Positions 20,217-39,286 of a DNA stretch of 64,000 nucleotides are shown here, in pieces (the first letter of the stretch is position 1; every line of letters begins with the position of its first letter). Both the position numbers and the translations under genes were made by a program. Below the pieces are notes generated by a model. It was given only the letters and a program-made list of their open reading frames with translations, was not told the origin of the DNA and ran no database searches. The DNA comes from Flagellimonas algarum. Lineage in GTDB: Bacteria; Bacteroidota; Bacteroidia; Flavobacteriales; Flavobacteriaceae. The stretch lies in contig NZ_JBEVTG010000001.1 of assembly GCF_040513375.1 (NCBI RefSeq), positions 952,244 to 1,016,243 on the forward strand, given 5' to 3'.

Positions 20217-20224
20217 TATATTTG
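20217..20224 (+). promoter_or_regulatory. -7 box TATATTTG, overlapped by a near-palindrome TGTGTATCAATAACACA (20223..20239) that is a candidate NrtR operator
   Basis: The TAnnTTTG consensus lies ~20 nt upstream of the ATG at 20246. The imperfect inverted repeat TGTGTAT-CAA-TAACACA overlaps the box. Confidence 0.35.
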
Positions 20225-20245
20225 TGTATCAATAACACATATTGC

Positions 20246-20917: not shown

Positions 20918-20992
20918 TGCTGGCTTATTCCACATAAAAATAATTTGCGTAAAAAAAACACAAAATATCTTGTGAGGTTCAAAAACACAATT

Positions 20993-21000
20993 TATATTTG
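20993..21000 (+). promoter_or_regulatory. -7 box TATATTTG within an imperfect ~30-bp direct repeat (ATTTGCGTAA...ACACAAAATA, twice)
   Basis: 20941..20970 versus 20995..21026 share the ATTTGCGTAA and ACACAAAATA blocks. 40 nt upstream of the SPFH gene ATG. Confidence 0.3.
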
Positions 21001-21039
21001 CGTAATAAATACACAAAATAATCTTAAAAACCAGTCGTT

Positions 21040-22056: not shown

Positions 22057-22057
22057 T

Positions 22058-22981: not shown

Positions 22982-22982
22982 A

Positions 22983-23936
22983 ATGGGGAGAATCAAAAAT
23001 GGTATAATTGGTTTGGCTATTGGGGATGCCCTTGGAGTCCCTGTAGAATTTATTTCCCGTGAAGAATTGAATGCTTCTCCTGTTATGGATATGATTGCCT
23101 TTGGGACACATGATCAGCCCTTGGGCACCTGGTCTGATGACACTTCATTGACGCTTTGCATGTGTGAAGCCCTATTAGAGGGCTTTGACTTGACCAGGAT
23201 TGCCAAGAATTTTATTTTTTGGAAGTACGGTATGTTTTGGACCCCCCATGGGTCTGTTTTTGACATCGGTATCCAAACAAGCAAATCAATAGACAAATTG
23301 AGCAAGGTCATCCAATCTGAACAGTTGGAAGATCTACGATTACTACGATATGAAGCGGATGAGTTCTCCAATGGGAATGGCTCATTAATGCGAATCCTTC
23401 CTTTATATTTTTATTTGAAAGGATCGTCGGTGGAGGGTGATTTTCAACTCATTTGGGAGGTCTCCGCGTTGACACATGGGCATATTCGTTCAGCACTTGC
23501 CTGTATGTTTTATTTGATGATGGTCGATGAATTGGTCCTAGGAAATACGAAAACGGAATCGTATGTAAAGGCCAAAGAACGAATGAACGTGTTTTTTGAA
23601 GTTCGTGATATTGCCGAAAGGGAAATCCGTGTTTTCGACCGAATTGTTTTAAACGATATTAGGGATTTGGAACGTAAAGAAATCCAATCCTCAGGATACG
23701 TCATACATAGTCTCGAGGCGGCTTTGTGGTGCTTTTTGAAAACCGATAGCTTCAAGGAATGTGTGTTAAAAGCAGTCAATCTTGGTGAAGACACCGATAC
23801 TGTTGGCGCTATTGCAGGCGGCCTTGCAGGGGTATACTACGGCGAGCGGAACATTCCGAAAAAATGGATGGATAATTTGGTAAAAATCGACCAGATAAAG
23901 GCATTGTGCGGGCAATTGGAAGCGTATTGGTCTTAA
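22983..23936 (+). CDS. ADP-ribosylglycohydrolase family protein
   Basis: N-terminal GIIGLAIGDALGVPVEF and C-terminal NLGEDTDTVGAIAGGLAGVYYG, the ARH Mg-binding motifs. Confidence 0.8.
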   Translation: MGRIKNGIIGLAIGDALGVPVEFISREELNASPVMDMIAFGTHDQPLGTWSDDTSLTLCMCEALLEGFDLTRIAKNFIFWKYGMFWTPHGSVFDIGIQTSKSIDKLSKVIQSEQLEDLRLLRYEADEFSNGNGSLMRILPLYFYLKGSSVEGDFQLIWEVSALTHGHIRSALACMFYLMMVDELVLGNTKTESYVKAKERMNVFFEVRDIAEREIRVFDRIVLNDIRDLERKEIQSSGYVIHSLEAALWCFLKTDSFKECVLKAVNLGEDTDTVGAIAGGLAGVYYGERNIPKKWMDNLVKIDQIKALCGQLEAYWS

Positions 23937-25267: not shown

Positions 25268-28063
25268 CTACGAGTATAAGAAGCTCCGTAGTTGTGTCAG
25301 CACACCTTCTTGGTCAAAATACCAATCGGCGAACGAGAGCGGGAAGACCTTGATCTGGGCACGGTTCAGGATGCGGATTCGCTCCACACTAAGCGCGTGG
25401 ACAAAGTCACCCGGATACCCGATCAAATCAATGGCGTAGTACCCTTTTTCGGTTTGGATCAATAGATCCAGGGTGATGTCGGCGATCCGATAGCCTTCCC
25501 AAAATTGGACCATAGCTTCTTTGGGCAAATGGTCTTGGATCTGCTTCAGGAAGAAATCCCGTTCCAGTCCTTGGGCGTGCGGTTTCGAAACGCTTTTTTC
25601 TTTTCCATACACCAAAAATTTTCGCAGCAGACTCCCAGGACGAAAATCCTTTGGATTGCCCGAATGATACACATACTGCCCATGTCTGGCCCGTGTCACC
25701 GATACATTGAAGACATCCGCCTTGTTCAAATGGCCATGGGCCGAATGATGGGTGGCCCCATCTACGACCAACGAAAGGAACATCAGGTCACGCTCTTCGC
25801 CTTGAAAGGCGTAAGGGGTGCCGACCTTGAACCGATGGCGCTCGAGGGTTTCGACCTCGAAACGATCGAATAGCGCCTCCGAAAGATGATCGACCTGACT
25901 TCTAAAAGGCGATAGGATTCCGATTGAAGTGACCAACGAAGGGTCCCACTCGGCCTCTTGGGCGACCCGCTCCCCCACATCCCGCAGCAAACGTTCGGCT
26001 TCGATGCTGTTGACGCCTTGCGCATCCCGGCTGCCATCACAAGGAATGAGGTAAAGCGACCGTTCGTCACGACCCGGCTTATGGGTCATCAAACGCAGTT
26101 CGTTGTTGTAGAATTCGCGATTGCTGAACCCGATGATCTGGGGCAGACTGCGGTAATGCTCGTCGAGCATGGCTACTTGCGATCGGCGTTGTAGGCTGTT
26201 GATGGCAAGGTCGAGAATGCTATGGTCACGGTAGTTCAACAAAAAGGGATCTACTGCTTGCAACCCCAGTTTTTGTTGCAATTGGAATTGTACGTTCTTC
26301 GATAAGAACGAGATATGGCGCAGTTGGTTCGGGTCACCGGCGAACACCACCCTTTTGGCGCGTTGTAAGGCCGGCAGACAAGAAGCGATATCGCACTGGG
26401 TCGCCTCATCGATGATCACCACATCGAACAGTCCGTTGATCAAGGGCACCTTGTCCTTCACTTCGGAAAGGTTGATCAACCATATCGGGAAGGCCTTTAA
26501 AACGCAATCGAAGTCTATTTTTTCAAAGATGGCGATGCGCTCCGTATCGCTATGGGTGTTCAGTGCCCGGTAGAATTCATTGAAATCGCCCCAATGGTCG
26601 TGCATGACCTTGAGCAGGTTCAAAATGTAGTTCCATTTTAAGAACTCCTTGGTCTTCTTGACCGAATCGCCGTCTTTGGTCCGGATTTCCGACACGATTT
26701 CATGCAGCGCTTCCTGAAAAGGCAGTTTGTTGACCAGTTGCAACCATAGCGACTTGAGGTCATCCCACAGCTTGGATTCCTTTTGGCTCAAAAAATCGCT
26801 TTTCGCTTGTTCCCCCTCCAAAACCGCCGCGTAATCTTGCTCCAATCCCTGGGTCTCCCGCTTGATTTTTTGCAATTGACGATGGAGTGATTCGATAAAA
26901 TCGCGGAGCTTACCGATATCATCGAACCCATTGTGCTCTTCGAATTCTTTATGTAAAAACCGCATGGGAGAAGCACTGACCAACATCGATTTAATGAAAC
27001 GCCGCACTTTGGTGACGTGTTTTCGTTTTCGACCGCCCCTGATGATACAGTGTTCGAAACCCAGCTGCCCGTTGATCTTTTCTGCCACGACATCGACCGC
27101 CTCATCGGTTCTCGAGACGACCAATACCGATTCGCCCCGACTCATATGTTCAAGGGCAATGGCCGAAATGGTATAGGTCTTCCCGGTTCCCGGCGGACCG
27201 ACGATCAGGGTGGTCGGATGGGTAGCTGCCGAAATCAAAAGGCTTTTCTGGGCTTTGCTCAGCACCGTGGGTACGTAGCCCATCACCGCTTCGGGTGTTG
27301 CGGGCAACGATTTTGCCGAGCGCTCGAAGAGGGTGGTATAGGGGCTTGAAAAGGTAGAGGCGGCACCCAGTTGTTTCAGTTCGTTGAGCACCCCACGGGT
27401 CTGTTTTGACTTTTCGACGATACCCATGACACTGAAGGGCAAGATCTGATAGCTATTCTCGGTCCCTTTTAGTTTTCGCAATCGATACCGTATTTGCCCA
27501 AGGCTGAGGTTGTTCGGATAGCCCAATAATTCTTGGGCCTCGATATCGGGATGGTGTTTTTCGAACAAGGCGATCAATTGGCCGACATGCTCGAAGCGAA
27601 ACGGGCCACTGGGCAACGCCTTAAGCAGGGCGTTTTGGAAATTGTCGGTTTCATCGGCACTGGCCAAGAGCTGTAACAACGGATAGTTGAGTCGGCGTGA
27701 TTGCAGGTCGATCCGGGCAAAATAAAACCCGTCGTTCTGTTCTACGCGAATATCATGGTAGAGCAAAGGGGCGCAAAGGGCCTGTGATTTTCCCCGAAAA
27801 TCGACATAGGTGCCACACACAAAGAGGGCTCCATGAACCAGTTCTTTTTCCTTTTCGAACAGTTTTGCGTTTTTCAGTAACAGCTCGCCCTGTTCGTTGG
27901 GAATGGGCACAATGGGATAGGTGCCGTTGATCAGTTCTTCTTCTTCGAAAAAGACTTTATGGGCGACCTTGGGTTTGAGAAAGTCCATGATGCTGATCGA
28001 TCGGTTGTCGGCCAGATAGCAATCATGGAAGTAGTTGGCGATGTTGGCGAGATTCCCTGTCAT
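25268..28063 (-). CDS. Superfamily-1 (Upf1/DNA2-like) helicase with a C-terminal Vsr/DUF559-like PD-(D/E)xK nuclease-fold domain
   Basis: Walker A LIVGPPGTGKTYTI. Walker B/motif II VVIIDEATQ. Motif VI VFNVSVTRAR. C-terminus YRIADITLDLLIQTEKGYYAIDLIGYPGDF...ERIRILNRAQIKVFPLSFADWY resembles DUF559 (yivDF...IEvDG..H...D..Rd..L...G..vlRf). Confidence 0.7.
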   Translation of the reverse strand: MTGNLANIANYFHDCYLADNRSISIMDFLKPKVAHKVFFEEEELINGTYPIVPIPNEQGELLLKNAKLFEKEKELVHGALFVCGTYVDFRGKSQALCAPLLYHDIRVEQNDGFYFARIDLQSRRLNYPLLQLLASADETDNFQNALLKALPSGPFRFEHVGQLIALFEKHHPDIEAQELLGYPNNLSLGQIRYRLRKLKGTENSYQILPFSVMGIVEKSKQTRGVLNELKQLGAASTFSSPYTTLFERSAKSLPATPEAVMGYVPTVLSKAQKSLLISAATHPTTLIVGPPGTGKTYTISAIALEHMSRGESVLVVSRTDEAVDVVAEKINGQLGFEHCIIRGGRKRKHVTKVRRFIKSMLVSASPMRFLHKEFEEHNGFDDIGKLRDFIESLHRQLQKIKRETQGLEQDYAAVLEGEQAKSDFLSQKESKLWDDLKSLWLQLVNKLPFQEALHEIVSEIRTKDGDSVKKTKEFLKWNYILNLLKVMHDHWGDFNEFYRALNTHSDTERIAIFEKIDFDCVLKAFPIWLINLSEVKDKVPLINGLFDVVIIDEATQCDIASCLPALQRAKRVVFAGDPNQLRHISFLSKNVQFQLQQKLGLQAVDPFLLNYRDHSILDLAINSLQRRSQVAMLDEHYRSLPQIIGFSNREFYNNELRLMTHKPGRDERSLYLIPCDGSRDAQGVNSIEAERLLRDVGERVAQEAEWDPSLVTSIGILSPFRSQVDHLSEALFDRFEVETLERHRFKVGTPYAFQGEERDLMFLSLVVDGATHHSAHGHLNKADVFNVSVTRARHGQYVYHSGNPKDFRPGSLLRKFLVYGKEKSVSKPHAQGLERDFFLKQIQDHLPKEAMVQFWEGYRIADITLDLLIQTEKGYYAIDLIGYPGDFVHALSVERIRILNRAQIKVFPLSFADWYFDQEGVLTQLRSFLYS

Positions 28064-28081: not shown

Positions 28082-28840
28082 TTATCGCAGCATTTCATGA
28101 AGTTTCTGCACGTCTTGGTGCACCAGGGTCAACCGTCCTTCGATCATATCCGAAAAGTCCGGGATGCGGTGACAGAACACCTGCCGAATTTCCCAGAGCT
28201 CCTTGATGGCCGAAACGGGCATTACGATATCGACGATGTTCTTATGGTCCGTTTTCAGCGTGATTTCACCCGACGAAAAGAAAAACCGCCTGAAGATGAG
28301 CGCTTCGGCAGTGACTACCACACAATACGCCCCTTTTTCCACTTTCTTGAAATCCTTTTTGGTTACAGCTTCCCCGATAATGATGTCCTTGGGGTAAAAG
28401 CCCCGGTCCAGATGGGTCATCTCAAGGTTTTGGACTTCGAAAGCCCGCGAAGAATCCGGCCGATCCACAGGCAATTGAAGTTTGGGAAGGCCTTTGAGAA
28501 AAGCCTCGTCTTCATACGAAAAAGGATAGTCCGAAATATAGGTGCCCGTGACACAACCGATTTCTGGAAAACGGTCGTTTACGATCTTGGTCGAGTCAGT
28601 GGTCAGGTCCGCTTTGAATTTCAAGAGCTCATTGACCGTAAGTTCGTTGGTCAAGAGGTCGTCGATCGTGATACTAAAATAATTAGCAATTTTGATAATC
28701 GTATCGATTTTCGGTTCACTTCGCTGCTCTTCATAGGCTCCCAGAGTCGCACGTTTCAGGTCGAAAATCTCTGAAAAGGCCTGTTGGCTCATGTTCTGGA
28801 CACTACGGATTTTCTTGATGTTCTTGCCGAAGAAAGACAT
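28082..28840 (-). CDS. XRE-family HTH regulator with a C-terminal LexA/S24-peptidase-like domain (catalytic Ser/Lys apparently not conserved)
   Basis: HTH: IKKIRSVQNMSQQAFSEIFDLKRATLGAYE. The C-terminal ~110 aa (..EVQNLEMTHLDRGFYPKDIIIGEAV...AYCVVVTAEALIFRRFFFSSGEITLKTDHKN..) follows the S24 beta-fold pattern, but has EMT where GDSM is expected and R where the general-base Lys is expected. The 18-nt gap to the helicase gene suggests co-transcription. Confidence 0.65.
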   Translation of the reverse strand: MSFFGKNIKKIRSVQNMSQQAFSEIFDLKRATLGAYEEQRSEPKIDTIIKIANYFSITIDDLLTNELTVNELLKFKADLTTDSTKIVNDRFPEIGCVTGTYISDYPFSYEDEAFLKGLPKLQLPVDRPDSSRAFEVQNLEMTHLDRGFYPKDIIIGEAVTKKDFKKVEKGAYCVVVTAEALIFRRFFFSSGEITLKTDHKNIVDIVMPVSAIKELWEIRQVFCHRIPDFSDMIEGRLTLVHQDVQKLHEMLR

Positions 28841-28852
28841 AATTTGCTAATA

Positions 28853-28866
28853 ATATTTGCAAATAT
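28853..28866. promoter_or_regulatory. Perfect 14-bp palindrome ATATTTGCAAATAT in the divergent promoter region, flanked by ATTTGC half-sites. Candidate operator for the adjacent HTH regulator.
   Basis: The sequence is self-complementary. Additional ATTTGC repeats lie at 28843..28848 and 28875..28880. Located 13 nt upstream of the regulator ATG. Confidence 0.5.
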
Positions 28867-29062
28867 GAAAATTATTTGCTATGTTTGTTAGGTAAATATA
28901 GCAATTTATGTGGTCGCGACCCGTTATTTTGCTGAAAAAAATAGACATTTTACAAATTTAGCTATGATTTTTAGCCATTTTATATGGATGGATTCATGAA
29001 AAGGCAGTAATTTATAGCTTCATTTGAGAGCGACAGTATAAACAGAAACCAGCCCAAAACGC

Positions 29063-29458
29063 ATGGAAGATAATTTTCAAAAGGTCAAAGCATATCTACA
29101 ACAATTGGATCTCGATATCGCCACTGAAAACCAGGAGGAAGGTATTTTGGTCATCAATAAGGAACAAGAAGGTATCAAAAACCTGATCTTAGGGGTATTT
29201 ACCCCCATATTGATCATCGAGCAGCACATTTTCGATATCGCCCAAGGCGATGCCAAAATCTATAAGGAGCTCCTCAAAAAGAACAGGGATATCGTGCATG
29301 GGGCTTTCGTACTCGATGAATCCGGTGAAAAAGTAATCTTTAGGGACACCCTCAGATTGCAACACTTGGATCTCGACGAACTCGAGGGATCCTTAAATTC
29401 CTTAAGCCTATTGCTAAGTGAATATGCCGATCAAATTATAAACTATTCAAAACAATAA
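29063..29458 (+). CDS. YbjN-domain-like protein (putative sensory-transduction/T3SS-chaperone-like fold)
   Basis: 131 aa, acidic, with a two-half alpha/beta pattern (..EGILVINKEQEGIKNLILGVF... / ..IVHGAFVLDESGEKVIFRDTL..). Sits immediately upstream of PspA (3-nt gap), as in yjfI-yjfJ-type operons. Confidence 0.45.
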   Translation: MEDNFQKVKAYLQQLDLDIATENQEEGILVINKEQEGIKNLILGVFTPILIIEQHIFDIAQGDAKIYKELLKKNRDIVHGAFVLDESGEKVIFRDTLRLQHLDLDELEGSLNSLSLLLSEYADQIINYSKQ

Positions 29459-29460
29459 AC

Positions 29461-30177
29461 ATGGTAAATTTTTTCAAAAGACTATTTAAGATCGGCGAAG
29501 CCGAGGCGAATGCCGTAATCGACAAGATGGAAGACCCCATCAAACTGACCGAACAAGGGATACGTGACATGAAAGGTGATTTGGAAAAAAGCCTCGAATC
29601 CTTGGCGCAAGTCAAGGCCTTGGCCATTCGTTCCAAGAACGACACCGAGGAGTTTTTGGCCAAGGCCGAAGACTATGAGCAAAAAGCCATGCTGATCCTT
29701 CAGAAAGGCCATAAGAACGAAATCGATACCACAGAGGCCGACCGTTTGGCCAAAGAGGCCCTTGTTAAAAAGGAAGCCGCGAACCAACAGGCCGCCCGTA
29801 GCAAAAGCGACACGGAAAAGTTCGAAGGCTCCGTGGCCAAACTCGAGAAGAACGTGCAAGAGATCAAGCAGAACATTTCCCGATGGGAAAATGAACTCAA
29901 GACCTTAAAAGCCAGGGTCAAGGTGTCTAAAGCCACCAAGAACCTCAACAAGCAAATGGCTGAGATCGACAGCTCGAGTACCGTCTCGATGTTAGAGCGC
30001 ATGAAAGAGAAAGTGCAGCAAGAAGAAGCGCTGGCCGAAGCCTATGGCGATATCGCCAACGCTTCCAAATCCATCGATGAGGAAATCGACAAGGCCGCCG
30101 ATGTATCGGAAGCCAATGCCGATGCCGATTTGGCGAAGCTCAAGGAACAATTGGGCCTGAATGACAAGAAATCGTAA
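29461..30177 (+). CDS. pspA: PspA/IM30 (Vipp1) family protein
   Basis: N-terminus FFKRLFKIGEAEANAVIDKMEDPIKLTEQGIRDM aligns to PspA [33 protein letters not shown]. All-helical coiled-coil over 238 aa. Confidence 0.85.
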   Translation: MVNFFKRLFKIGEAEANAVIDKMEDPIKLTEQGIRDMKGDLEKSLESLAQVKALAIRSKNDTEEFLAKAEDYEQKAMLILQKGHKNEIDTTEADRLAKEALVKKEAANQQAARSKSDTEKFEGSVAKLEKNVQEIKQNISRWENELKTLKARVKVSKATKNLNKQMAEIDSSSTVSMLERMKEKVQQEEALAEAYGDIANASKSIDEEIDKAADVSEANADADLAKLKEQLGLNDKKS

Positions 30178-30222: not shown

Positions 30223-30933
30223 TTGGAACAGTATTTTGACATCCTTTTTTCACAGGTAAACAGTACCCTGACCATTCTTTTGATCATCCTCATCGTTTAC
30301 TGGTTGATCACCATGGTCAGCGGTCTCGACTTCGACCTCGACGTTGATGTCGACGTTGACATCGATGCCGATGTCGACTTGGAAGTGGACACCGGAATCG
30401 AAGGGGGAAGCATGGACTTTTCCGATGTCGCGAATGCAGAGGTCGACCGTGAACACGTCGTCAACAAAAAAACACGCAAACTGAAATGGTGGCAGATCGT
30501 GTTGATTTATTTCAACTTTGTCGGATTGCCGTTTATGTTCACGTTCACGTTTTGGATCTTCCTTTGGTGGATCATCAGTGTACTGGCCACAGTACTTACC
30601 TTCAGCTATGACAATAGCTTTGGGTTCGTCATCGTACTGTTGGCCATCGTTCCCTCCCTGATACTGACCAAGATCGTCACCACGCCTTTCAAGGCCTTTT
30701 TCAAAAACCTGAACAAAGACGGTGACGAGGCGGTCGATTTTCTAGGAAGGGAGGCCATTTTGCAATCGACGGTTTCCGGTGATAAACTGGGCAATGCCGA
30801 GGTGAATGCCAACGGAAACATCATGAACATCTATGTCAAATCGCTTGATGGTTCCGAATTGCGGTTCCGCGAAAGCGTGCTCATCATCAAACAATCGGAC
30901 GACAAAAGCTTCTTTTTCGTAAGCAGATCATAA
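30223..30933 (+). CDS. YqiJ/DUF1449-like inner-membrane protein with an NfeD-type C-terminal OB-fold. The start is a TTG; the first in-frame ATG (30313) would delete TM1.
   Basis: TM helix TLTILLIILIVYWLITMVSGL. Acidic tract DFDLDVDVDVDIDADVDLEVDTG. Two further TMs. C-terminus GREAILQSTVSGDKLGNAEVNANGNIMNIYVKSLDGSELRFRESVLII, an NfeD-like beta-barrel. Confidence 0.6.
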   Translation: MEQYFDILFSQVNSTLTILLIILIVYWLITMVSGLDFDLDVDVDVDIDADVDLEVDTGIEGGSMDFSDVANAEVDREHVVNKKTRKLKWWQIVLIYFNFVGLPFMFTFTFWIFLWWIISVLATVLTFSYDNSFGFVIVLLAIVPSLILTKIVTTPFKAFFKNLNKDGDEAVDFLGREAILQSTVSGDKLGNAEVNANGNIMNIYVKSLDGSELRFRESVLIIKQSDDKSFFFVSRS

Positions 30934-30967: not shown

Positions 30968-33034
30968 ATGGAAGGAATCTTACCTATCATCGTAACGGCA
31001 TTGGGAGTCTTGCTGTTTCTAATCATCGTATACTTTGCGATCATCGCCCTGTTCTATAAAAAGGTGCACCAAGGGGAAGCTTTGGTACGTACCGGGTTCG
31101 GGGGTACCAAGGTCGCTACGGACAAAGGGCTCTACGTCGTACCTGTTTTTCACCGTGTCGAGGTCATGGATATCTCGGTAAAGAAGATACAGATCGAACG
31201 TATGGGTGTCGAAGGATTGATCTGTAAAGACAATATGCGTGCCGATATCAAGGTAGCCTTCTTTGTGCGCGTCAACAACGAAGTGGATTTCATCAAAAAA
31301 GTGGCACAGACCATCGGGGTCGCCAGGGCTTCCAGAAAGGAAACCTTGGAAGACCTTTTCGAGGCGAAATTCTCCGAAGCCTTGAAGACCGTTGGAAAGA
31401 AGTTCGAGTTTACCGCCCTCTATGAAGCCCGTCGCGAATTCCGCGATGAGATCGTCGATATCATCGGTACCGACCTCAATGGATATACCCTCGAAGACTG
31501 CGCCATCGATTACCTCGAGCAGACCTCGGTATCGCATTTGAAACCCGACAACATCCTTGATGCCGAAGGGATCAAAAAGATCACCGATCTGACCGCGGCG
31601 CAAAACATCAAGGCCAACCTGATCAAAAGGGATGAGGAGAAGATCATCCGCAAGCAGGATGTCGAGGCCCGGGAAGCGATTTTGGAATTGGACCGACAAT
31701 TGGCCGAGAAAGAGGAACAACAAAAACGGGAGATCGCCAATATCAAATCGCGTGAAGAGGCCGAGATCATGAAGGTGGCCGAAGAAGAGAAACTCAAATC
31801 GGAAAGTGCCCGTATCGCCACCGAAGAGAAATTACAAGTGGCCGAAGAAAACAAACTACGCCAAGTGGTGGTGGCCCAAAAGAACAAAGAGCGTACCGCC
31901 GCCGTTGAAACCGAACGTGTTGAAAAAGACCGTGCCCTAGAGGCTACCGAAAGGGAGCGCGTGGTCACCCTGGCCCAGATCGAGAAAGAAAAGGTCGTTG
32001 AGGTCGAGAAGAAAAACATCCAAGATGTGATTCGCGATCGCGTCATGCTCGAAAAAGGCGTAGTCGAAGAGCAAGAGAACATGAAGGACATTCAAGCGTT
32101 CAAAGGGGCCGATCGTGAGAAACAAGTGAAAGTGACCCTTGCCGAAGCCGCGGCCCAAGAGGATCTGATCAAGACCTTGAAAGCGGCCGAAGCCCAGAAA
32201 GAGGCAGCCAAGCAAAAGGCCGAAGAGGTCAATATCGAAGCCCAGGCCCATAAAGAAGCCAGTGAGAAAGAGGCCGAAGCCCGTAAGACATTGGCAGAGG
32301 CCAAAGCCAAAGAAGAAGCGACCATTGGTCTATCGGAAGCCGAAGTGATGCACGCGAAAGCCGATGCTTCCGAAAGGCAGGGTACGGTCGAAGCCTTGAT
32401 TATTGAGAAAAAAGCCAAGGCCGAAGCCGCAGGAATCGAAGCCAAAGCCGATGCGATCAAGAAAGAAGGCTTGGCCGAGGCCGAGGTTATCAAGGAAAAA
32501 GCCATCGCCGATGCTGCCGGTATCGAAGAAAAGGCCAATGCCATGAAGAAGCTTGACGGTGTCGGAAAAGACCATGAGGAGTTCAAACTGCGATTGGAGA
32601 AAGAACTACAGATCGATTTGGCCCATATCAATATCCAGAAGGAAATCGCCGATGCCCAGGCCCGTGTGCTTTCTGAAGGATTGAAAGCCGCGAATATCGA
32701 TATCGTCGGTGGGGAGTCCATGTTCTTTGATCAAATCGTCGGACAGATAACCCGCGCCAAAGGCTTCGATCGATTGCTTCAGCACTCCGAGCAGGCCCAA
32801 GACATCAAAGATGCGATTTTGGGAACCGAAGATGTGGCAGGCAATTTATTGGGCCGCATCAAGGAATTTGCCGTTCAGTACGATATTTCATCCGAAGATC
32901 TGAAGAACCTTTCCGTGGCCAACCTTCTGCTGCAATTGAAGTCAAGGGCAACGAGCAACGACGAGGGCAATATGTTCGAAAACTTGTTGAACCTGGCCAA
33001 TAGCCTTGGATTGGGCAACAAGAAATTGAAATAA
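30968..33034 (+). CDS. Flotillin-family (YqiK-like) SPFH protein with a long coiled-coil
   Basis: N-terminal TM, then SPFH core GEALVRTGFGGTKVATDKGLYVVPVFHRVEVMDISVKKIQIE... About 350 aa of EA/AK-rich heptads. 688 aa. Confidence 0.85.
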   Translation: MEGILPIIVTALGVLLFLIIVYFAIIALFYKKVHQGEALVRTGFGGTKVATDKGLYVVPVFHRVEVMDISVKKIQIERMGVEGLICKDNMRADIKVAFFVRVNNEVDFIKKVAQTIGVARASRKETLEDLFEAKFSEALKTVGKKFEFTALYEARREFRDEIVDIIGTDLNGYTLEDCAIDYLEQTSVSHLKPDNILDAEGIKKITDLTAAQNIKANLIKRDEEKIIRKQDVEAREAILELDRQLAEKEEQQKREIANIKSREEAEIMKVAEEEKLKSESARIATEEKLQVAEENKLRQVVVAQKNKERTAAVETERVEKDRALEATERERVVTLAQIEKEKVVEVEKKNIQDVIRDRVMLEKGVVEEQENMKDIQAFKGADREKQVKVTLAEAAAQEDLIKTLKAAEAQKEAAKQKAEEVNIEAQAHKEASEKEAEARKTLAEAKAKEEATIGLSEAEVMHAKADASERQGTVEALIIEKKAKAEAAGIEAKADAIKKEGLAEAEVIKEKAIADAAGIEEKANAMKKLDGVGKDHEEFKLRLEKELQIDLAHINIQKEIADAQARVLSEGLKAANIDIVGGESMFFDQIVGQITRAKGFDRLLQHSEQAQDIKDAILGTEDVAGNLLGRIKEFAVQYDISSEDLKNLSVANLLLQLKSRATSNDEGNMFENLLNLANSLGLGNKKLK

Positions 33035-33110
33035 GGATAGGCAGGCCCTGCCTTCTACAAGGGGTAGGGCATGCTTTCTATAGCGAACATTCACGAGAGA
33101 CACCCCTTCT

Positions 33111-33455
33111 ATGTTGAACCGTTTTATACGTTGGATAAGTGGTTTGGGAACCGCCCAAAACGCGACCCTTGAACACCAAGGGAAACGACCGCACTCCAAC
33201 GCTGGTCATGTGGTCAAAGGGCATAGTCAAGTGGTTCGGGTACCCGATTTGGGATATGGCCAAAGCTATCGCCTAACGAAATGGCACAAAGAACCTGGGG
33301 ATCACATTCGTTCGGGAGACATCGTTTGCAGTTTAGAGAATGAAACGATCCTCTTCGAATTTGAAAGTTTATACAGTGGTCGGTTGCAATATCGCATTCC
33401 GCTGAACCAAAAGATGGAAGTGGGCGAAGTGCTGTTCCATATCGAAGGGATGTAA
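33111..33455 (+). CDS. Small protein with a lipoyl/biotinyl-attachment (hybrid-motif) fold that lacks the modifiable lysine
   Basis: VVRVPDLGYGQSYRLTKWHKEPGDHIRSGDIVCSLENETILFEFESLYSGRLQYRIPLNQKMEVGEVLFHIEG matches the lipoyl-domain pattern (P.lG....g.i..W.vk.GD.V..gd.l.evETDKa..ev.sp..G.l..i.v..G..v.vG..l..i). The sequence has ENET where ETDK is expected. Confidence 0.4.
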   Translation: MLNRFIRWISGLGTAQNATLEHQGKRPHSNAGHVVKGHSQVVRVPDLGYGQSYRLTKWHKEPGDHIRSGDIVCSLENETILFEFESLYSGRLQYRIPLNQKMEVGEVLFHIEGM

Positions 33456-33525: not shown

Positions 33526-36500
33526 ATGCAGGAAGAACAAGAACATACGCCTAGCAATACCCTACTCGATGATGGCACCTATGAGATCATCCGGGCCCGC
33601 TTAAAGGAGCAGAAAAACGCCTTGCAAACACGGCTTAATCAGCTCAACGAAAGCCGAAAGCAGGTTTTTGGAAGCGTCGTGACCCAACTGATTGCCAACA
33701 ATCGAATCAACACCGAGAACAATTGCATTGCCCGTGACATCATCACCATTGGCGAACACACCATTTTGGGCTATAATGTCCATTTTGGGTTGCGTACCCA
33801 GATCAAATTGGAAGATGTGTTCGGCGTTTTTGCGTATCAAGATGGGGGGTTCGTAGCCCAAAACCTCTCCTTGATCGATGACGAGGTGTTCTTGAACGAC
33901 TTCGTCAACCTCTATAAGTACTACCGAAATACCATTTTCAGCAAGTTTGCCGTGGTGGGCAACTACCTGCACATGGTTTTTCAGCTTAGCGAAAGCACCT
34001 CCGATATCAAAACCTTCAAATGGTTGATCAAAGACGGCAGTTTGCGCTATCAAGACAACCGTAGCGACCATGAATTCAGAATGCCGGCCCAGCATGGGTT
34101 CCATTGGGTGGAGACCGACCGCGACATGCAGCGCTACGGCGATTTCCCCCATGTATCCATTCTAGACAAGGTATTCGTTGAAACCGTTGGGGGCGACCTT
34201 ACCATCAAGATCGAAGACAATACCGATGAAGGCCTGGGGATCTTCAGTGAAGCCGTCGAACATCAAGACCAAACACTCGACGACGGGCAGTTTCGCTATG
34301 CCGAGATCGGTAACCTCATCGCCATTGAAATCAAGCCGTTTCAAGAAGAACCGCGGTATTTCGTATACAACCACAAGATCCAAGAGGTCAAGAAAATACC
34401 CAGCATCAAAAATGCCTGCATCCTGCTTCCCAATGACCAAGGGGTCATTTATCCGAACGGATATTACTTACAATCCGGGGCTTTTAAGAAGTTTGAAAAC
34501 GACTTGGGCAAGGTGCGGTTTCAAGAGAAGGTCAGCTCGCCCAATGGCGAAGACTTTCTCTATGTTTTTTACGAAAGTGAAACGGGGGTCTATGTATTGA
34601 TGTCTTACAACGTCATTGAGCAAGAAGTGAAGACCCCGATCATTTGTAACGGGTTTACCTTGCTTAAAAACGGGGAGCTCTGTTATTTCAAGACCGATGG
34701 CGAGCAAACCAAGCACCATGTCATTCAAATTTGGCAGACCACCTTTATGAAAGGGACCGAGATCCCGTCCGAACATACCGACACCTTGTTGTACAAAATC
34801 GGCAATAAGGACATCGTAGCGGCCATGGCCGAATGCCAATCGTTGATCACCCTTTTAAACAAAGAAGATAGCTACAGCGGGCTCTACGACGACCTGGTTA
34901 AGTTCGCGACCGACATTCTTGATAGTTATTATTGGATCCATGAGGAAGAGGCCCATGAGCTCAACCTGCCATTGATTGCCATCAACGATACGGCCAATGC
35001 GGCGATCGATGAATTCGAAAAAGTCGTGCAACTTCGTAAAACGGCCGCTTCGACCACAAAAGCGACCCAAGAAACCGCAGCCGCACTTTTTGGGAAGATC
35101 AAAAGCAGCTCCTTCAAATCGATCGATGATTTCGTGAAGATCTTATCGAACCTCCGCTCGTTTCGGGGTGAGGTCATCGGTTTAAAGGAAGTACGCTATG
35201 TCGATGTTTCCTTTATTGAAGAATTGGAGGTCCAGATCGCTGAGCAGACCGAAAAGGTTTCGCAACGCTGCGTGCTATTCCTTATCGATGACAAAGCCCT
35301 ATTGCCTTATCAAGACCGCGTGTCCGAAAAGCAGCAGCAATTGGAAAAGGTGGTCAAGGTCGTCGACACCAAACAACTACAAGACGAGGTGAACCAGATC
35401 GCGGTCGACCTCGAAATGCTCATTGAGATCGTTTCGAACCTCAAGATCGAAGACACTTCGCAAACCACGAAGATCATCGACAACATTTCCCTGATCTTCG
35501 CGTCGATCAACCAGCTGAAGGCAGGGATCAAGAACAAGATCAATGCGCTTTCCGTCGAAGAATCGGGTGCCGAATTCGCGGCCCAATTGAAATTGGTCGA
35601 TCAGAGCGTGATCAATTACCTCGATATTTCGGGTACCCCTGAAAAGACCGATGAATTGTTGAACAAGGTGGTGCTCCAACTTGAAGACCTCGAAGGGCGC
35701 TTCGCCGATTTCGAGGACTTTATCGCACAGATCATCGAAAAGCGCGAAGAAGTATACAATGCCTTTGAAGCCCGTAAAATGGCTTTGGTAGAGGCCCGTA
35801 ACAAACGCACCGTGGCCTTGGAAAATTCGGCCAACCGCATTTTGAAAGGGGTGCTTAAAAAATCGCTGACCTTCGACAACCTGAACGACATCAACGGATA
35901 TTTCGCCGGAGACCTTATGGTGAGCAAGATCCGCGATATCGTGCAGCAGCTGTTGGAATTGGAAGATTCCGGCAAGGCCGAAGCCATAGAGACTGCGGTC
36001 AAAGTGGCCAAGGAAGATGCGATTCGAAAGCTGAAAGACAAGCAAGACCTGTATGAAGATGGAGAGAACATCATCAAATTGGGCAAGCACAAATTCGGCG
36101 TGAACAAACAGGTATTGGACCTCACCATCGTCTATAAGGATGACCGTCTTTTTTACCATTTGACGGGGACGGATTTTTACCAAGAAATCGAAAACGAGAC
36201 CTTGACCAAATCCCAAGCCTATTGGAACCAAGAGCTGGTTTCCGAAAACCAGCAGGTATACCGTGCGGCCTATTTGGCCTATAAGATCTTCAAGGCGAAC
36301 GATGCAACCGAGTTGCATGCCATGTCGAAATCGGCCTTGAAGCAACTCGTGGTCGATGCCACGAGCAAAAACTATGCGGAAGGCTATGTGAAAGGGGTGC
36401 ATGATGAGGATGCCCATAAGATCCTAATGGCACTGGTGGCGAAACATCACGACTTGGGAGTGCTGACCTACGCCCCTAACATCAGGGCCTACGCCCAATA

Positions 36501-38403
36501 TTTTTGGCAGACCCTAGACGCCGATGCGGTCAGCCATTGGAACGATTTGCTGAAAAATGCAGGACAGGTTGTAAAGACGTTTCCGAACAGTACCGCCCAT
36601 GATAAGGTCGTGGGCCAATTGGCTGAGGCCATTTCGGAATTCGCGGAGGCACAACAGTTGTTCGATGCCGGACAAAGTCACGAAGTGGCCCGATATCTTT
36701 TTAAGGAAATCAAGGAGCACTACGATTTCTCGGTCAGCCATACCGCCTTGGAACGCTACGGGCAATTCGCCAAAGCGCTTAAGGGCAAAAAGCTGTATTC
36801 GAAAGTAAAGGAGAAGGTGGCCATCGACCCCCATCAGCAGATCGACGACCTTCAAGAACGGATCACCTTGGCTTGGCAATGGGTCAAGGCCTATTTAAGC
36901 GATGGCGCTGATGAACACTATTTGCATGAGGTGTGCTGCCTGTTTTTATTTCCCCATGGACCGAGGGTCATCAGTGCGAGCCCCAAAGTGGATATCGCTA
37001 AAATGAAGGGCAGTCATGAGCGTTTGAACGAGGGGGTCTTCGCCTTTGATTATCATGGGTTCATTGCCGCATTAGCGCATTTCAGCAAGCATGAGGTCGT
37101 TGCTTTCAATGCGTTCGCCAAAGCAAAACACGAGCTGACCGAGCAAGTGAAAGACGACTTGAAATTGGAAGGCTTCAAGCCCAGGGTCTTATCATCTTTT
37201 GTACGCAACAAGTTGATCGATCAGGTCTATTTCCCGTTGATAGGCGACAATTTGGCCAAGCAACTGGGCAGCGCCGGTGAAAACAAGCGCACCGATAGAA
37301 TGGGGATGCTGCTTTTGATATCCCCGCCCGGGTACGGAAAGACCACCTTGATGGAATACATGGCGAACCGTTTGGGGTTGATCTTTATGAAGATCAATGG
37401 CCCTGCGATAGGTCATGAGGTCACTTCGGTCGATCCGAATACCGCATCGAATTCAGCGGCGAAAGCCGAATTGGAAAAATTGAACCTGGCCTTTGAAATG
37501 GGGAACAATGTCATGCTGTATTTGGATGATATCCAACATTGCAATCCGGAGTTCCTCCAAAAGTTCATTTCCTTGGCCGACGGTACCCGAAAAATAGAAG
37601 GTATTTATAACGGCGTGGCAAAAACCTACGACCTGCGGGCCAAAAAGTTCTGTGTTATCATGGCCGGAAACCCCTATACCGAAAGCGGGGATAAGTTTCA
37701 GATACCCGACATGCTGGCGAATCGGGCCGACATCTACAATTTGGGGGATATCATAGGCGATACCGCCGATCTGTTCGAACTCAGTTTGATCGAGAACGCC
37801 CTGACGTCGAATCCGATCCTGCAACAGTTGAGCAGCAAATCGTTCGAAGATGTATACGAACTGATCCATATGGTGACCAGCAATACCGAAGACACCGCTG
37901 CCCTCAAAGGCAACCATACCCGGCAAGAGGTGCAAGACTATCTGTCCGTTTTGGCCAAGGTAATCGAGGTGCGCAATACGGTTTTGCAAGTGAACGCGAC
38001 CTATATCAAATCGGCGGCGATGGAAGATGCCTATCGAACCGAACCGTCTTTCAAGTTGCAAGGATCTTACCGCGACATGAACAAATTGGTAGCGAAGATC
38101 GTACCGATCATGAACGATTCGGAACTCGATACGCTCTTGTTGTCGCATTACGAAAGCGAGTCACAGACCTTGACAAGCGCTGCAGAGGCCAATCTTTTGA
38201 AATACAAAGAGCTGACCCAATCGTTGACCAAGGAAGAACAGGCACGATGGAAAAGCATCAAAGCCACCTTTGTCGAGCAGAACAAAGCGAAAGGGCTTGG
38301 GGATCAGGCAGCCATGTTCCAGTTGTTGCAGCAGGTTTCGGAGTTCAACAAGCATCTTGGGGGCATTCAAAAGACGCTGCAGCAACAGTTGAACGGCAAA
38401 TAA
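33526..38403 (+). CDS. Giant (1625-aa) uncharacterised protein with a single MoxR/AAA_5-like AAA+ ATPase domain in its C-terminal third
   Basis: Walker A LLLISPPGYGKTTLMEY, Walker B VMLYLDDIQHC, sensor region CVIMAGNPYTESGDKFQIPDMLANRADIYNL. N-terminal ~480 aa is beta-rich and ~800 aa in the middle are helical. No TM or signal peptide. A strong terminator follows. Confidence 0.6.
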   Translation: MQEEQEHTPSNTLLDDGTYEIIRARLKEQKNALQTRLNQLNESRKQVFGSVVTQLIANNRINTENNCIARDIITIGEHTILGYNVHFGLRTQIKLEDVFGVFAYQDGGFVAQNLSLIDDEVFLNDFVNLYKYYRNTIFSKFAVVGNYLHMVFQLSESTSDIKTFKWLIKDGSLRYQDNRSDHEFRMPAQHGFHWVETDRDMQRYGDFPHVSILDKVFVETVGGDLTIKIEDNTDEGLGIFSEAVEHQDQTLDDGQFRYAEIGNLIAIEIKPFQEEPRYFVYNHKIQEVKKIPSIKNACILLPNDQGVIYPNGYYLQSGAFKKFENDLGKVRFQEKVSSPNGEDFLYVFYESETGVYVLMSYNVIEQEVKTPIICNGFTLLKNGELCYFKTDGEQTKHHVIQIWQTTFMKGTEIPSEHTDTLLYKIGNKDIVAAMAECQSLITLLNKEDSYSGLYDDLVKFATDILDSYYWIHEEEAHELNLPLIAINDTANAAIDEFEKVVQLRKTAASTTKATQETAAALFGKIKSSSFKSIDDFVKILSNLRSFRGEVIGLKEVRYVDVSFIEELEVQIAEQTEKVSQRCVLFLIDDKALLPYQDRVSEKQQQLEKVVKVVDTKQLQDEVNQIAVDLEMLIEIVSNLKIEDTSQTTKIIDNISLIFASINQLKAGIKNKINALSVEESGAEFAAQLKLVDQSVINYLDISGTPEKTDELLNKVVLQLEDLEGRFADFEDFIAQIIEKREEVYNAFEARKMALVEARNKRTVALENSANRILKGVLKKSLTFDNLNDINGYFAGDLMVSKIRDIVQQLLELEDSGKAEAIETAVKVAKEDAIRKLKDKQDLYEDGENIIKLGKHKFGVNKQVLDLTIVYKDDRLFYHLTGTDFYQEIENETLTKSQAYWNQELVSENQQVYRAAYLAYKIFKANDATELHAMSKSALKQLVVDATSKNYAEGYVKGVHDEDAHKILMALVAKHHDLGVLTYAPNIRAYAQYFWQTLDADAVSHWNDLLKNAGQVVKTFPNSTAHDKVVGQLAEAISEFAEAQQLFDAGQSHEVARYLFKEIKEHYDFSVSHTALERYGQFAKALKGKKLYSKVKEKVAIDPHQQIDDLQERITLAWQWVKAYLSDGADEHYLHEVCCLFLFPHGPRVISASPKVDIAKMKGSHERLNEGVFAFDYHGFIAALAHFSKHEVVAFNAFAKAKHELTEQVKDDLKLEGFKPRVLSSFVRNKLIDQVYFPLIGDNLAKQLGSAGENKRTDRMGMLLLISPPGYGKTTLMEYMANRLGLIFMKINGPAIGHEVTSVDPNTASNSAAKAELEKLNLAFEMGNNVMLYLDDIQHCNPEFLQKFISLADGTRKIEGIYNGVAKTYDLRAKKFCVIMAGNPYTESGDKFQIPDMLANRADIYNLGDIIGDTADLFELSLIENALTSNPILQQLSSKSFEDVYELIHMVTSNTEDTAALKGNHTRQEVQDYLSVLAKVIEVRNTVLQVNATYIKSAAMEDAYRTEPSFKLQGSYRDMNKLVAKIVPIMNDSELDTLLLSHYESESQTLTSAAEANLLKYKELTQSLTKEEQARWKSIKATFVEQNKAKGLGDQAAMFQLLQQVSEFNKHLGGIQKTLQQQLNGK

Positions 38404-38692: not shown

Positions 38693-39286
38693 ATGAAAAC
38701 CCTATTCATAATTGCACATTTCATTTATTTTTTCCCAAACATCAACGATATCCCTTTTTTCATTGAGAAAATTAATAAGGATGGTCCTGAGTTTTTATGC
38801 AAAGTTCCAACGACTATCGAGGAACTAAGTGATGGTGTGGTTATCGACGCCTATGATTTTGCCGATGGTGACGAAAAGAGTTTGGGTCTATTGGGTTTTT
38901 TCAATGTCAACATAAAAAAACACGAACGGGTCACCGTGGTTGAATACCTACAACGAGGTTCGATGCATTGTAACGGGAAAGTATCAAAATTCGGTATAGG
39001 TGCCCGCATGATGATGCGGGTGACCAGTCATAATAAAAAGGCCCGCCTCGACACACCACAGCAGATTACAGCCAGCGTCATTTTTGGCCATGCGACCGTT
39101 AAATTCAGCATGCACACCTTTGGGATTACAGGTCCGGGAATCGCCGACCTCAACCAAATCGGATCAATCAATGAGAACACCTATGCCAGTTTTATATCCG
39201 GCATTTCGGAATTGCTTGCCAAGGCCTATGACGGTGACGGGCGATACATCATCAAACCACAGCGGCTGAGGGCCGAAGGCCTATAA
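38693..39286 (+). CDS. Hypothetical protein, 197 aa, no recognisable motif
   Basis: Isolated ORF in a locally AT-rich stretch. No signal peptide or TM. Coding status unverified. Confidence 0.3.
   Translation: MKTLFIIAHFIYFFPNINDIPFFIEKINKDGPEFLCKVPTTIEELSDGVVIDAYDFADGDEKSLGLLGFFNVNIKKHERVTVVEYLQRGSMHCNGKVSKFGIGARMMMRVTSHNKKARLDTPQQITASVIFGHATVKFSMHTFGITGPGIADLNQIGSINENTYASFISGISELLAKAYDGDGRYIIKPQRLRAEGL

Follow-up and report, generated by a model that had tools for sequence, protein, structure and literature searches.

The closest described counterpart of the locus studied here is an operon reported by Ravi et al. (2024, mSystems; PMC11237479), with the order CesT/Tir-PspA-YqiJ/YuaF-flotillin-AAA+ and exemplified by Dokdonia donghaensis (ANH61663.1). 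In that work, which was based on comparative genomics only, the AAA+ clade was left unassigned and the linkage was not quantified. The MoxR proteins, such as CbbQ, NorQ and RavA, are stand-alone ATPases of ~300 aa with a separate VWA/MIDAS partner (CbbO, NorD and ViaA, respectively). The Vps4 ATPase of archaea and eukaryotes is of the classical AAA clade and carries an MIT domain at its N-terminus; its gene is linked to one of the ESCRT-III superfamily. A 2025 review (PMC7619361) notes that bacteria appear to lack a Vps4-like ATPase, which leaves this role vacant. Finally, the HflK/C-FtsH system brings together an SPFH scaffold, an AAA+ machine and an NfeD-like neighbor; FtsH is membrane-anchored, bears a protease domain and is of the classical AAA clade.

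The window, that is, the whole stretch of 64,000 nucleotides of Flagellimonas algarum DNA analyzed, contains an operon of the first kind (Table 1). No substantive difference was found from the operon of Ravi et al. (2024), whose example also comes from the Flavobacteriaceae: the CesT/Tir-PspA pair, the flotillin gene, and the propeller and long helices of the ATPase are all present, and the window has in addition a lipoyl-like ORF of 114 aa between the flotillin and ATPase genes. The genes flanking the operon are housekeeping genes.

Table 1. Genes of the operon and domains of the ATPase, with their positions in the window.
Feature	Position (nt)	Strand	Description and evidence
Xre-type HTH regulator gene	28082..28840	-	252 aa; HTH_19/HTH_3
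CesT/Tir-like chaperone gene	29063..29458	+	131 aa; CesT_Tir_1 E 9e-54, full length
PspA/IM30 gene (bacterial ESCRT-III superfamily)	29461..30177	+	238 aa; PspA_IM30 E 2.8e-43
YqiJ-like gene	30223..30933	+	236 aa; three TM segments, acidic loop, beta-rich C-terminus
Flotillin gene	30968..33034	+	688 aa; Band_7 E 7e-13
114-aa ORF	33111..33455	+	lipoyl/biotinyl-like barrel; Biotin_lipoyl E 2.8e-8
ATPase gene	33526..38403	+	1625-aa DUF3686-DUF7902-AAA+ protein; ORF and Pfam domains
Beta-propeller, core of DUF3686	33685..34737	+	residues 54-404; AlphaFold2 model
Helical bundles/coiled-coil stalk	34786..36051	+	residues 421-842, ~420 aa; model
Middle domain	36070..36948	+	residues 849-1141; small beta-meander and helical domain; model
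AAA+ alpha/beta core	37210..37740	+	residues 1229-1405; model
AAA+ lid, then C-terminal helical hairpin	37741..38397	+	lid 1406-1563, hairpin 1569-1624; model

The ATPase gene was confirmed as a single ATG-to-TAA reading frame with one AAA+ module. Its product is 100% identical to an NCBI protein of Flagellimonas sp. DF-77 and has more than 4,800 homologues at E <= 1e-5 (search limited to 8,000 candidates), and the protein is thus real, far beyond chance. A maximum hydropathy of only 1.1 indicates that it is soluble and has no TM segment. The sequence-only reading had seen no recognizable partner domains, which proved wrong, since Pfam identifies both DUF3686 (PF12458; residues 33-469, E 8.8e-174; 578.6 bits, with the cutoff at 25; the match extends over profile positions 2-448 of 448) and, within the stalk, DUF7902 (PF25472; residues 590-672, nt 35293-35541, E 5.8e-25). 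Its description of a beta-rich N-terminus followed by ~800 mostly helical residues was borne out by the AlphaFold2 models (pLDDT 86 for residues 1-1150 and 91 for the AAA+ region). A helix at residues 18-48 precedes the propeller (pLDDT mostly 88-95), whose ~27 strands therefore correspond to 6-7 blades, and the stalk consists of ten helices according to DSSP, the longest of 58 residues.

The Foldseek search that had been proposed identified the N-terminal propeller and left the middle domain without a match: with the 1-1150 model, generic propellers alone were found for the propeller (7-11% identity), and beyond these the matches were spurious long-helix ones (dynein, IFT-A). Besides DUF7902, nothing in Pfam matched the stalk, middle domain or C-terminal tail when the threshold was relaxed to E <= 10; the stalk has a profile match to the Habc bundle of syntaxin, at a sub-threshold E of 0.02. 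No family for the whole protein was found in NCBIfam or PADLOC. The middle domain contains a family-invariant motif, EGYxxGVHDxDA (G957, H959 and D962; nt 36394-36414; 71 diverse sequences), and could carry a separate activity.

The Walker A, Walker B and sensor motifs were found where the sequence-only reading had placed them; the module itself, set there at ~1280-1450, has instead a core at ~1229-1405 and a lid reaching ~1563. The Walker A motif is SPPGYGKTT (GYGKTT at residues 1269-1274, with K1272), and the Walker B motif is LYLDDIQH (1331-1338), with an hhhhDD pattern (D1334-D1335). Sensor 1 is N1382, in CVIMAGNPY (1376-1384), the candidate arginine finger is R1400, in ANRADIYNL (1398-1406), and QGSYR of the lid (1512-1516), invariant in the 71 sequences, is a candidate sensor 2. 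Because the nucleotide-site residues K1272, D1334/D1335, N1382, R1400 and R1516 are invariant in this alignment, with identities down to 29%, the protein is likely to be an active ATPase. The second Walker B position is Asp in this family, whereas MoxR proteins have DE; the usual catalytic Glu is replaced in all 71 aligned members, and for that reason the enzyme could act as a slow switch and not as a processive motor.

The AAA+ core is structurally closest to MoxR, midasin and dynein. The earlier MoxR/AAA_5 assignment is supported by a pre-sensor-1 beta-hairpin in the model (residues 1356-1369) and by an AAA_5 score of 28.7 bits (cutoff 22); the generic PF00004 (AAA) profile also exceeds its cutoff, at 31.7 bits, so that the sequence profiles do not clearly favor AAA_5. 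The hairpin tip bears a conserved aromatic residue (EGIYNG here, consensus EGVWxG). Helix 2 of the core is interrupted by a conserved irregular insert of 14 residues, NGPAIGHEVTSVDP (1291-1304), in which the model has no hairpin. PDB searches with the single sequence and with the 71-sequence profile matched ~40 residues at the P-loop only (RuvB, p97, Rix7), and these matches were uninformative on the AAA+ clade or on the other domains. In contrast to the MoxR proteins, the module here forms the C-terminal end of a much longer protein (1625 aa), whose gene is linked to flotillin and to no VWA gene. The classical-clade AAA and the MIT domain of Vps4 are lacking. The link between an AAA+ gene and an ESCRT-III-superfamily gene, here PspA, is common to both systems. 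Likewise, the SPFH scaffold, AAA+ machine and NfeD-like neighbor are shared with HflK/C-FtsH, but the ATPase is soluble, without protease domain and MoxR-like.

The protein is a member of a widespread and already catalogued DUF3686-DUF7902-AAA+ family. Both DUFs were present in 27 of 27 diverse members, and the architecture is completed by AAA (26 matches) and AAA_5 (24 matches). The ATPase can be aligned end to end with 70 homologues. It shares 86% and 79% identity with its counterparts in sister genera, ~50% with those in other Bacteroidota and 44-49% with those in other phyla, and this fall with taxonomic distance suggests that descent has been mainly vertical. Streptomyces, Flavobacterium, Bacteroides and Sphingobacterium are among the hosts. 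The NCBI name of the family is "DNA repair ATPase", and it is systematically mislabelled in this way. A literature search on DUF3686/PF12458 and flotillin-linked MoxR ATPases returned no study of the family besides Ravi et al. (2024) and no experiment on any member; the family is catalogued, and no defined function was found for it.

The conservation of the neighborhood was then quantified in 64 loci, and recurrent families and VWA genes were surveyed in 81 related loci. Flotillin, directly upstream of the ATPase gene in 61/64 loci (an adjacent flotillin gene is missing in 3), and the YqiJ/NfeD-like gene, upstream of flotillin in 60/64, emerged as the constant partners. The ATPase gene is indeed the last of the co-directional CesT-PspA-YqiJ-like-flotillin string, as first proposed, but the stress then laid on PspA was too narrow: the PspA gene, an extension of the module specific to Bacteroidota, occurs in half of the loci (32/64), every one of them from that phylum. 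The CesT/Tir-like gene (31/64) is always paired with it, at a distance of 2 nt in the window. No further gene family recurs near the ATPase. The absence of VWA, on which the sequence-only reading had remarked, was corroborated, with no such gene in the operon and none conserved across the 81 loci.

The flotillin linkage was observed in Bacteroidota, Planctomycetota, Verrucomicrobiota, Desulfobacterota and Clostridia, as well as in Streptomyces and a betaproteobacterium, and at least eight phyla have the family tied to a single flotillin orthologue. This flotillin comprises an N-terminal TM helix (residues 1-34), SPFH/Band_7, a long charged coiled-coil/repeat region and a flotillin-type C-terminus. 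Judged by its full-length identity of 46% in Streptomyces and 44% in Aquincola, it is unusually conserved across phyla. The Streptomyces stomatin-like protein StlP was set aside as a different SPFH protein, located in a cellulose-synthesis cluster. A C-terminal docking peptide shared by flotillin and PspA (LGLxNKK and LGLNDKK in Flavobacteriaceae) was also considered and is a weak lead; the flotillin tail is weakly conserved, with only a Gly and some hydrophobic residues kept in 63 flotillins. The 236-aa YqiJ-like protein has three hydrophobic segments and no Pfam or NCBIfam match, and its label rests on the assignment of such proteins to YqiJ/YuaF (NfeD-like) by Ravi et al. (PMC11237479).

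The HTH gene is adjacent and divergent in 31/64 loci, and its product, called "cHTH+Protease" by Ravi et al., probably regulates the operon. An operator-like sequence, TTTGCTA-N6-TTTGCAA, lies beside the start of this gene; it is seen again in many loci of Flavobacteriaceae and in one of Bacteroides. The 114-aa ORF, which the sequence-only reading had left out, was rejected as a conserved partner, as its homologues are confined to Ulvibacterium and Croceivirga, making three closest genera in all. It is a lineage-specific insert without a modifiable lysine, having ENET where DKA or MKM would be expected; in Tenacibaculum, a GIY-YIG ORF occupies its place. A hairpin is located at 33045-33070, between the flotillin gene and this ORF.

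The observed domain anatomy, AAA+ clade, family size and gene linkage are best explained, as a whole, if the ATPase, the flotillin and the YqiJ-like protein are functional partners and the motor remodels membrane-stress scaffolds, a reading to which a probability of about 0.5 is given. Points that speak against it are the weakly conserved flotillin tail, the Asp at the catalytic Walker B position, the 3 loci lacking an adjacent flotillin gene and the invariant middle domain, with its possible separate activity. A widespread, catalogued family that lies nearly always beside flotillin is for this reason a good candidate scaffold remodeller and not a new architecture. The initial proposal of a new architecture of membrane-remodelling ATPase thus retains its role, which fits the neighborhood, and loses its novelty, the combination being already in Pfam, NCBI and Ravi et al. 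(2024), where the same qualitative prediction was reached (PMC11237479).

Regarding oligomerization, substrate and direction of action, we infer that the AAA+ modules would form a ring, like those of MoxR, NorQ and CbbQ, and that the fused propeller and stalk would replace the separate VWA adaptor normal for MoxR proteins and dock the motor onto the cytoplasmic flotillin assembly. ATP hydrolysis would pull, open or disassemble flotillin cages, together with PspA/ESCRT-III-like polymers where these are present, and membrane-stress scaffolds would be recycled or remodelled in a way comparable to the action of Vps4 on ESCRT-III. In Bacteroidota, the window included, the module is enlarged by the CesT-like and PspA genes, probably under the divergent HTH regulator. 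The linkage of an AAA+ gene to an ESCRT-III-superfamily gene points to a membrane-remodelling polymer that is recycled at the expense of ATP. More tentatively, the family may be the missing ATP-driven recycler of bacterial membrane scaffolds, a MoxR/midasin-like ring motor with fused arms in place of the VWA adaptor, which opens flotillin cages and, in Bacteroidota, PspA polymers, as a functional analogue of Vps4 from a different AAA+ clade; on this view, the invariant GVHDxDA motif might mark a middle domain with another activity.

The neighborhood data fit equally well a reading in which flotillin cages serve as scaffold or regulator, as HflK/C does for the AAA+ protease FtsH, and not as the substrate; the cage would localize an ATPase that unfolds or extracts other clients, e.g., damaged or unassembled membrane proteins in flotillin microdomains. 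SPFH cages around AAA+ machines are an established theme, as in HflK/C-FtsH, the flotillin-ATPase linkage is tight, the propeller and long stalk could reach clients, and the pre-sensor-1 hairpin has an aromatic tip that would allow substrate threading. This reading is considered unlikely, since the ATPase has neither a protease domain nor a TM anchor and no conserved client gene was found nearby in the 81 loci. More improbable is a PspA-specific analogue of Vps4, which would disassemble PspA polymers with flotillin merely recruiting it: the ATPase gene ends a PspA-containing operon here, PspA accompanies it in the 32 loci mentioned, and PspA-AAA+ associations have been likened to ESCRT-III/Vps4 (PMC11237479).

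An anti-phage or conflict system is very improbable. MoxR-type ATPases have been described in NTP-dependent conflict systems (PMC7159879), and an SF1 helicase encoded just upstream (25268-28063, minus strand) matches the Mokosh MkoA/MkoC models of PADLOC (E 2e-37). However, synteny of this helicase is limited to the two genera closest to the window, and it was rejected as a part of the system. Moreover, the six operon proteins gave no meaningful PADLOC match (none for the ATPase, CesT, YqiJ-like, flotillin and 114-aa proteins, and weak coiled-coil matches of PspA to JetC, E 1e-3), the identity pattern suggests mainly vertical descent, and the flanking genes are housekeeping. A role in DNA repair, after the NCBI and Pfam names, is hardly credible: apart from the name, which has no support in the literature, it is favored by a sub-threshold likeness of the P-loop segment to RuvB chains and to RuvB_N (22 bits, where the cutoff is 27), but this likeness is limited to ~40 residues around Walker A, below family cutoffs, no DNA-binding, nuclease or repair domain was found in the ATPase by Pfam or NCBIfam, and its neighbors are membrane proteins in every phylum. 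The Pfam entry text itself reportedly concedes that this annotation lacks supporting literature.

Returning to scaffold remodelling by the ATPase, its linkage to one flotillin orthologue in so many phyla makes the family the obvious candidate for dismantling flotillin cages and PspA/ESCRT-III-like polymers in bacteria. Since the candidate had already been flagged in the literature, the window refines this picture and does not discover it. What it adds is the assignment to a MoxR-like clade, the recognition of flotillin in place of PspA as the constant partner, the lack of a VWA adaptor, the invariant DD of Walker B and the invariant middle-domain motif. The four host genera named above are tractable.

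The ATPase gene was found to be a single uninterrupted ORF of 1625 codons, running from ATG to TAA. NCBI has the same protein, at 100% identity, from Flagellimonas sp. DF-77 under the annotation 'DNA repair ATPase'. As the sequence-only reading had it, the gene is the last of the PspA/flotillin operon, closing a co-directional string with short gaps (2, 45, 34, 76 and 70 nt) from which an Xre-type HTH gene diverges.

Positions of the features discussed, in the window (nt) and in the ATPase (residues)
Feature	Window (nt)	Strand	Residues	Remark
Alpha-2-macroglobulin-like gene	13449-20033	-		2194 aa
Nudix-to-glycohydrolase string	20222-23936	+
Second SPFH/Band_7 gene	21040-22056			338 aa
SF1 helicase gene	25268-28063	-		931 aa
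Xre-type HTH gene	28082-28840	divergent
ATTTGCWA cluster	28842-28881
ATTTGCWA/TTTGCTA-N6-TTTGCAA sites				HTH-CesT intergenic regions of related loci L001, L004-L008, L012, L015, L034, L057
CesT_Tir_1 gene	29063-29458	+
PspA gene	29461-30177	+
PspA tail	30140-30174
3-TM (YqiJ-like, NfeD-like) protein gene	30223-30933	+
Flotillin gene	30968-33034	+		TM-SPFH-coiled coil
Flotillin tail	33000-33031
Hairpin	33045-33070	+
114-aa ORF	33111-33455	+
ATPase gene	33526-38403	+
DUF3686 (PF12458)			33-469	Pfam
DUF7902 (PF25472)			590-672	Pfam
N-terminal helix			18-48	AlphaFold2
Beta-propeller			54-404	AlphaFold2
Long helices (~420 residues)			421-842	AlphaFold2
Small beta-meander			849-887	AlphaFold2
Helical middle domain			891-1141	AlphaFold2
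EGYxxGVHDxDA motif	36394-36414		957-963
AAA+ alpha/beta core			~1229-1405	AlphaFold2
GYGKTT			1269-1274	Walker A
LYLDDIQH			1331-1338	Walker B
Walker B Asp-Asp	37525-37530		1334-1335
Beta-hairpin			1356-1369
CVIMAGNPY			1376-1384	sensor 1
ANRADIYNL			1398-1406
Q-GSYR			1512-1516	candidate sensor 2
AAA+ helical lid			to ~1563	AlphaFold2
197-aa ORF	38693-39286	+

Six-frame ORFs of 81 related loci were compared with the operon proteins of the window, and counts were taken from the 64 loci whose upstream sequence reached 6.3 kb or more. A long flotillin gene on the same strand was observed directly upstream of the ATPase gene in 61/64 loci and the YqiJ-like TM protein gene in 60/64; therefore, flotillin and its NfeD-like neighbour are the constant functional partners of the ATPase. 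The PspA, CesT-like and divergent HTH genes were detected in 32, 31 and 31 of the 64 loci, respectively. Loci with PspA belonged without exception to Bacteroidota, and PspA, CesT and the HTH regulator are a Bacteroidota add-on. Unrelated genes preceded the ATPase gene in the three loci lacking flotillin, and all-against-all ORF clustering revealed no further recurrent neighbour families, the other large clusters being shadow ORFs overlapping operon genes. The order small TM protein, flotillin (678 or 715 aa) and ATPase was shared by Streptomyces scabiei and Aquincola, whose flotillins share 46% and 44% identity, respectively, with that of the window over their full length. The ATPase gene of Aquincola is directly followed by a gene for a PLDc_2 protein (HKD phospholipase D; L083 13148-13855), which overlaps its stop codon. 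At 4 kb downstream of its ATPase gene, S. scabiei has a second Band_7/Flot gene, which is shorter (L082 16890-18323).

Several smaller features accompany the operon. The flotillin tail (...SLGLGNKKLK) resembles the tail of PspA (...QLGLNDKKS) from the same operon in Flavobacteriaceae; across phyla (L001-L081), column conservation is low and flotillin keeps only a hydrophobic-x-x-A-x-x-hydrophobic-G-hydrophobic core, also seen in ...AGELGLADASL of Streptomyces. A docking peptide shared by both proteins is a weak lead. The 114-aa ORF between the flotillin and ATPase genes encodes a lipoyl/biotinyl-like barrel (Pfam Biotin_lipoyl, E 2.8e-8) without the modifiable lysine, ENET replacing the expected DKA or MKM; its conservation is limited to Ulvibacterium and Croceivirga (L002, L003), and in Tenacibaculum a GIY-YIG ORF occupies this gap instead. 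A GC-rich 10-bp hairpin (GCCCTGCCTT...AGGGGTAGGGC) with a weak T-tract, 11 nt past the flotillin stop, could be an attenuator or terminator partly uncoupling the ATPase gene from the genes upstream. The motif ATTTGCWA has eight matches in the window, four of them inside 40 bp beside the start of the HTH gene, and the pair TTTGCTA-N6-TTTGCAA, with its 13-bp register unchanged, was also found in many loci of Flavobacteriaceae and in one of Bacteroides. This pair is a candidate operator of the HTH regulator, and Bacteroidota promoter elements also look similar.

Regarding the other genes nearby, the SF1 helicase (AAA_11/AAA_12), matched by the PADLOC Mokosh MkoA/MkoC models (E 2e-37), adjoins the HTH regulator, and it probably has nothing to do with the operon, since its synteny is limited to the two nearest genera. 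The second SPFH/Band_7 gene, 7 kb upstream, belongs to a string with an NrtR-like Nudix regulator, a 307-aa gene and an ADP-ribosylglycohydrolase; GC is lower here (0.41-0.42) than elsewhere in the window. CarboxypepD_reg and TonB-Plug-like segments are embedded in the alpha-2-macroglobulin-like protein, which has MG2, A2M and bMG10 domains and is encoded in a low-GC stretch (0.43-0.44). The 197-aa ORF, 290 nt past the end of the ATPase gene, had no Pfam, NCBIfam or PADLOC match and homologues in 0/81 related loci; it does not belong to the conserved module.

The domain layout was analyzed with two AlphaFold2 models from a 71-sequence alignment (residues 1-1150, pLDDT 86.3; residues 1100-1625, pLDDT 91.3). 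Both agree with the beta-rich N-terminus, helical middle and single C-terminal AAA+ module read from the sequence, and the AAA+ motifs were located exactly. The claim that nothing else could be assigned did not hold, as Pfam gives DUF3686 (E 8.8e-174) and DUF7902 (E 5.8e-25). In the models, the propeller has ~27 strands and therefore 6-7 blades, and Foldseek returned only generic propellers for it (7-11% identity). In a profile search, the long helices, which contain DUF7902, resembled the syntaxin Habc three-helix bundle only below threshold. The middle domain had no Pfam match even at E <= 10 and received no structural assignment; its EGYxxGVHDxDA motif (G957, H959, D962) does not vary among 71 sequences that go down to 29% identity, and it may be a second functional site. 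The AAA+ lid is followed by a C-terminal helical hairpin. The protein is soluble, because it has no hydrophobic segment (highest 19-residue hydropathy, 1.1).

In the same 71 family sequences, Walker A (S-PPGYGKT), the Walker B pair D1334-D1335, sensor 1 (N1382-P1383), R1400 (candidate arginine finger) and the candidate sensor 2 are all invariant, and the conservation of this nucleotide site points to an active ATPase. The usual catalytic Glu of Walker B is always replaced by Asp, which suggests unusual kinetics, possibly slow or switch-like. Pfam did not separate the AAA+ clades, since AAA (PF00004, 31.7 bits) and AAA_5 (28.7 bits) both exceeded their cutoffs and matched 26/27 and 24/27 diverse members. 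In the clade comparison, the highest scores corresponded to CbbQ2, a MoxR Rubisco activase (17.1), and NorQ (16.4), followed by midasin (14.7), dynein (ranks 4-6, 13.1-13.7), NVL (13.0), ClpB (12.9) and, lower, Vps4 (10.8-11.5). CbbQ2 and NorQ also obtained the top target-normalised Foldseek TM-scores (0.52-0.58). This likeness, together with the beta-hairpin inserted ahead of the sensor-1 strand, whose conserved aromatic tip is flanked by Gly, supports the MoxR/AAA_5-like assignment first made from the sequence. A helix-2 beta-hairpin was not seen in the AlphaFold2 model, a conserved irregular insert being placed there instead. Canonical MoxR proteins are stand-alone enzymes of ~300 aa with a VWA/MIDAS partner, whereas the ATPase has no such context; thus, its AAA+ module probably works like a MoxR motor, in a protein that is not itself a canonical member of that family.

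The family is widespread. A word-indexed search limited to 8,000 candidates gave more than 4,830 homologues (E <= 1e-5), and exhaustive HMMER with residues 1-1200 against 50%-identity representatives gave 1,325 clusters (E <= 1e-3), or 403 with the threshold set to E <= 1e-30, with full-length alignments down to ~27% identity. At least 589 species, scanned as one genome per species, carry a member; those listed include Bacteroidota, Planctomycetota, Verrucomicrobiota, Desulfobacterota and Clostridia, and a search from a distant member extended the family to Streptomyces, Nonomuraea, a betaproteobacterium and Myxococcota, nearly all of its matches being labelled 'DNA repair ATPase'.

Exactly this operon and architecture were described by Ravi et al. 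(2024; mSystems, PMC11237479), including a Dokdonia donghaensis row with identical gene order and the divergent 'cHTH+Protease', a PLD gene in some Proteobacteria operons and a wider distribution of shortened flotillin-YqiJ(-AAA+) operons. These authors drew an analogy with ESCRT-III/Vps4 and proposed that membranes or complexes are remodelled in an ATP-dependent manner. No experimental paper on the family was found in the literature on its DUF3686 domain, its database name, the pairing of MoxR proteins with flotillin or the flotillins of Streptomyces; therefore, the architecture and context of the ATPase are already known, as computational prediction.

According to PDB entry titles, the MoxR-type motors CbbQ and NorQ are hexamers acting on their targets via a VWA adaptor; flotillins and other SPFH proteins are described as building large membrane-attached cages. 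PspA is a member of the ESCRT-III superfamily, and a Vps4-like ATPase is not known from bacteria (PMC7619361). The mechanism proposed here, with a probability of about 0.5, is based on the following: the protein is soluble and has one conserved MoxR-type AAA+ module, a large propeller-stalk-middle region is fused to that module, and the gene is almost always linked to that of a TM-anchored flotillin, itself highly conserved. The fused N-terminal arms would take the place of the VWA adaptor and dock the AAA+ ring on flotillin assemblies and, in Bacteroidota, also on PspA polymers, which ATP turnover would then open, disassemble or reorganise.

The main rival, in which flotillin is a platform and not the substrate, as HflK/C for FtsH, seems rather unlikely. 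A Vps4 analogue devoted to PspA alone is improbable, as PspA is missing from half of the loci and the AAA+ clade differs from that of Vps4. Anti-phage defence is very improbable and not supported: PADLOC did not match the ATPase, its identity follows taxonomy and the flanking genes are housekeeping. The DNA repair function in the database name is without support and hardly credible, given that the ATPase has no DNA-related domain, its RuvB similarity is confined to the P-loop and under family thresholds, and the gene context is membrane-related throughout.

The sequence-only reading thus described something real, with partial accuracy, and its interpretation is supported in part: the MoxR-like assignment holds, a membrane-remodelling role is plausible, and the architecture is not new. 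The ATPase is catalogued in Pfam and NCBI, and its operon is already in the literature. Five refinements are added; they concern the AAA+ clade, the constant presence of flotillin as partner, the missing VWA adaptor, Walker B with its DD pair, and the GVHDxDA domain, which is invariant. How bacteria turn over their flotillin and PspA scaffolds with ATP is a long-standing gap that the ATPase is a candidate to fill.
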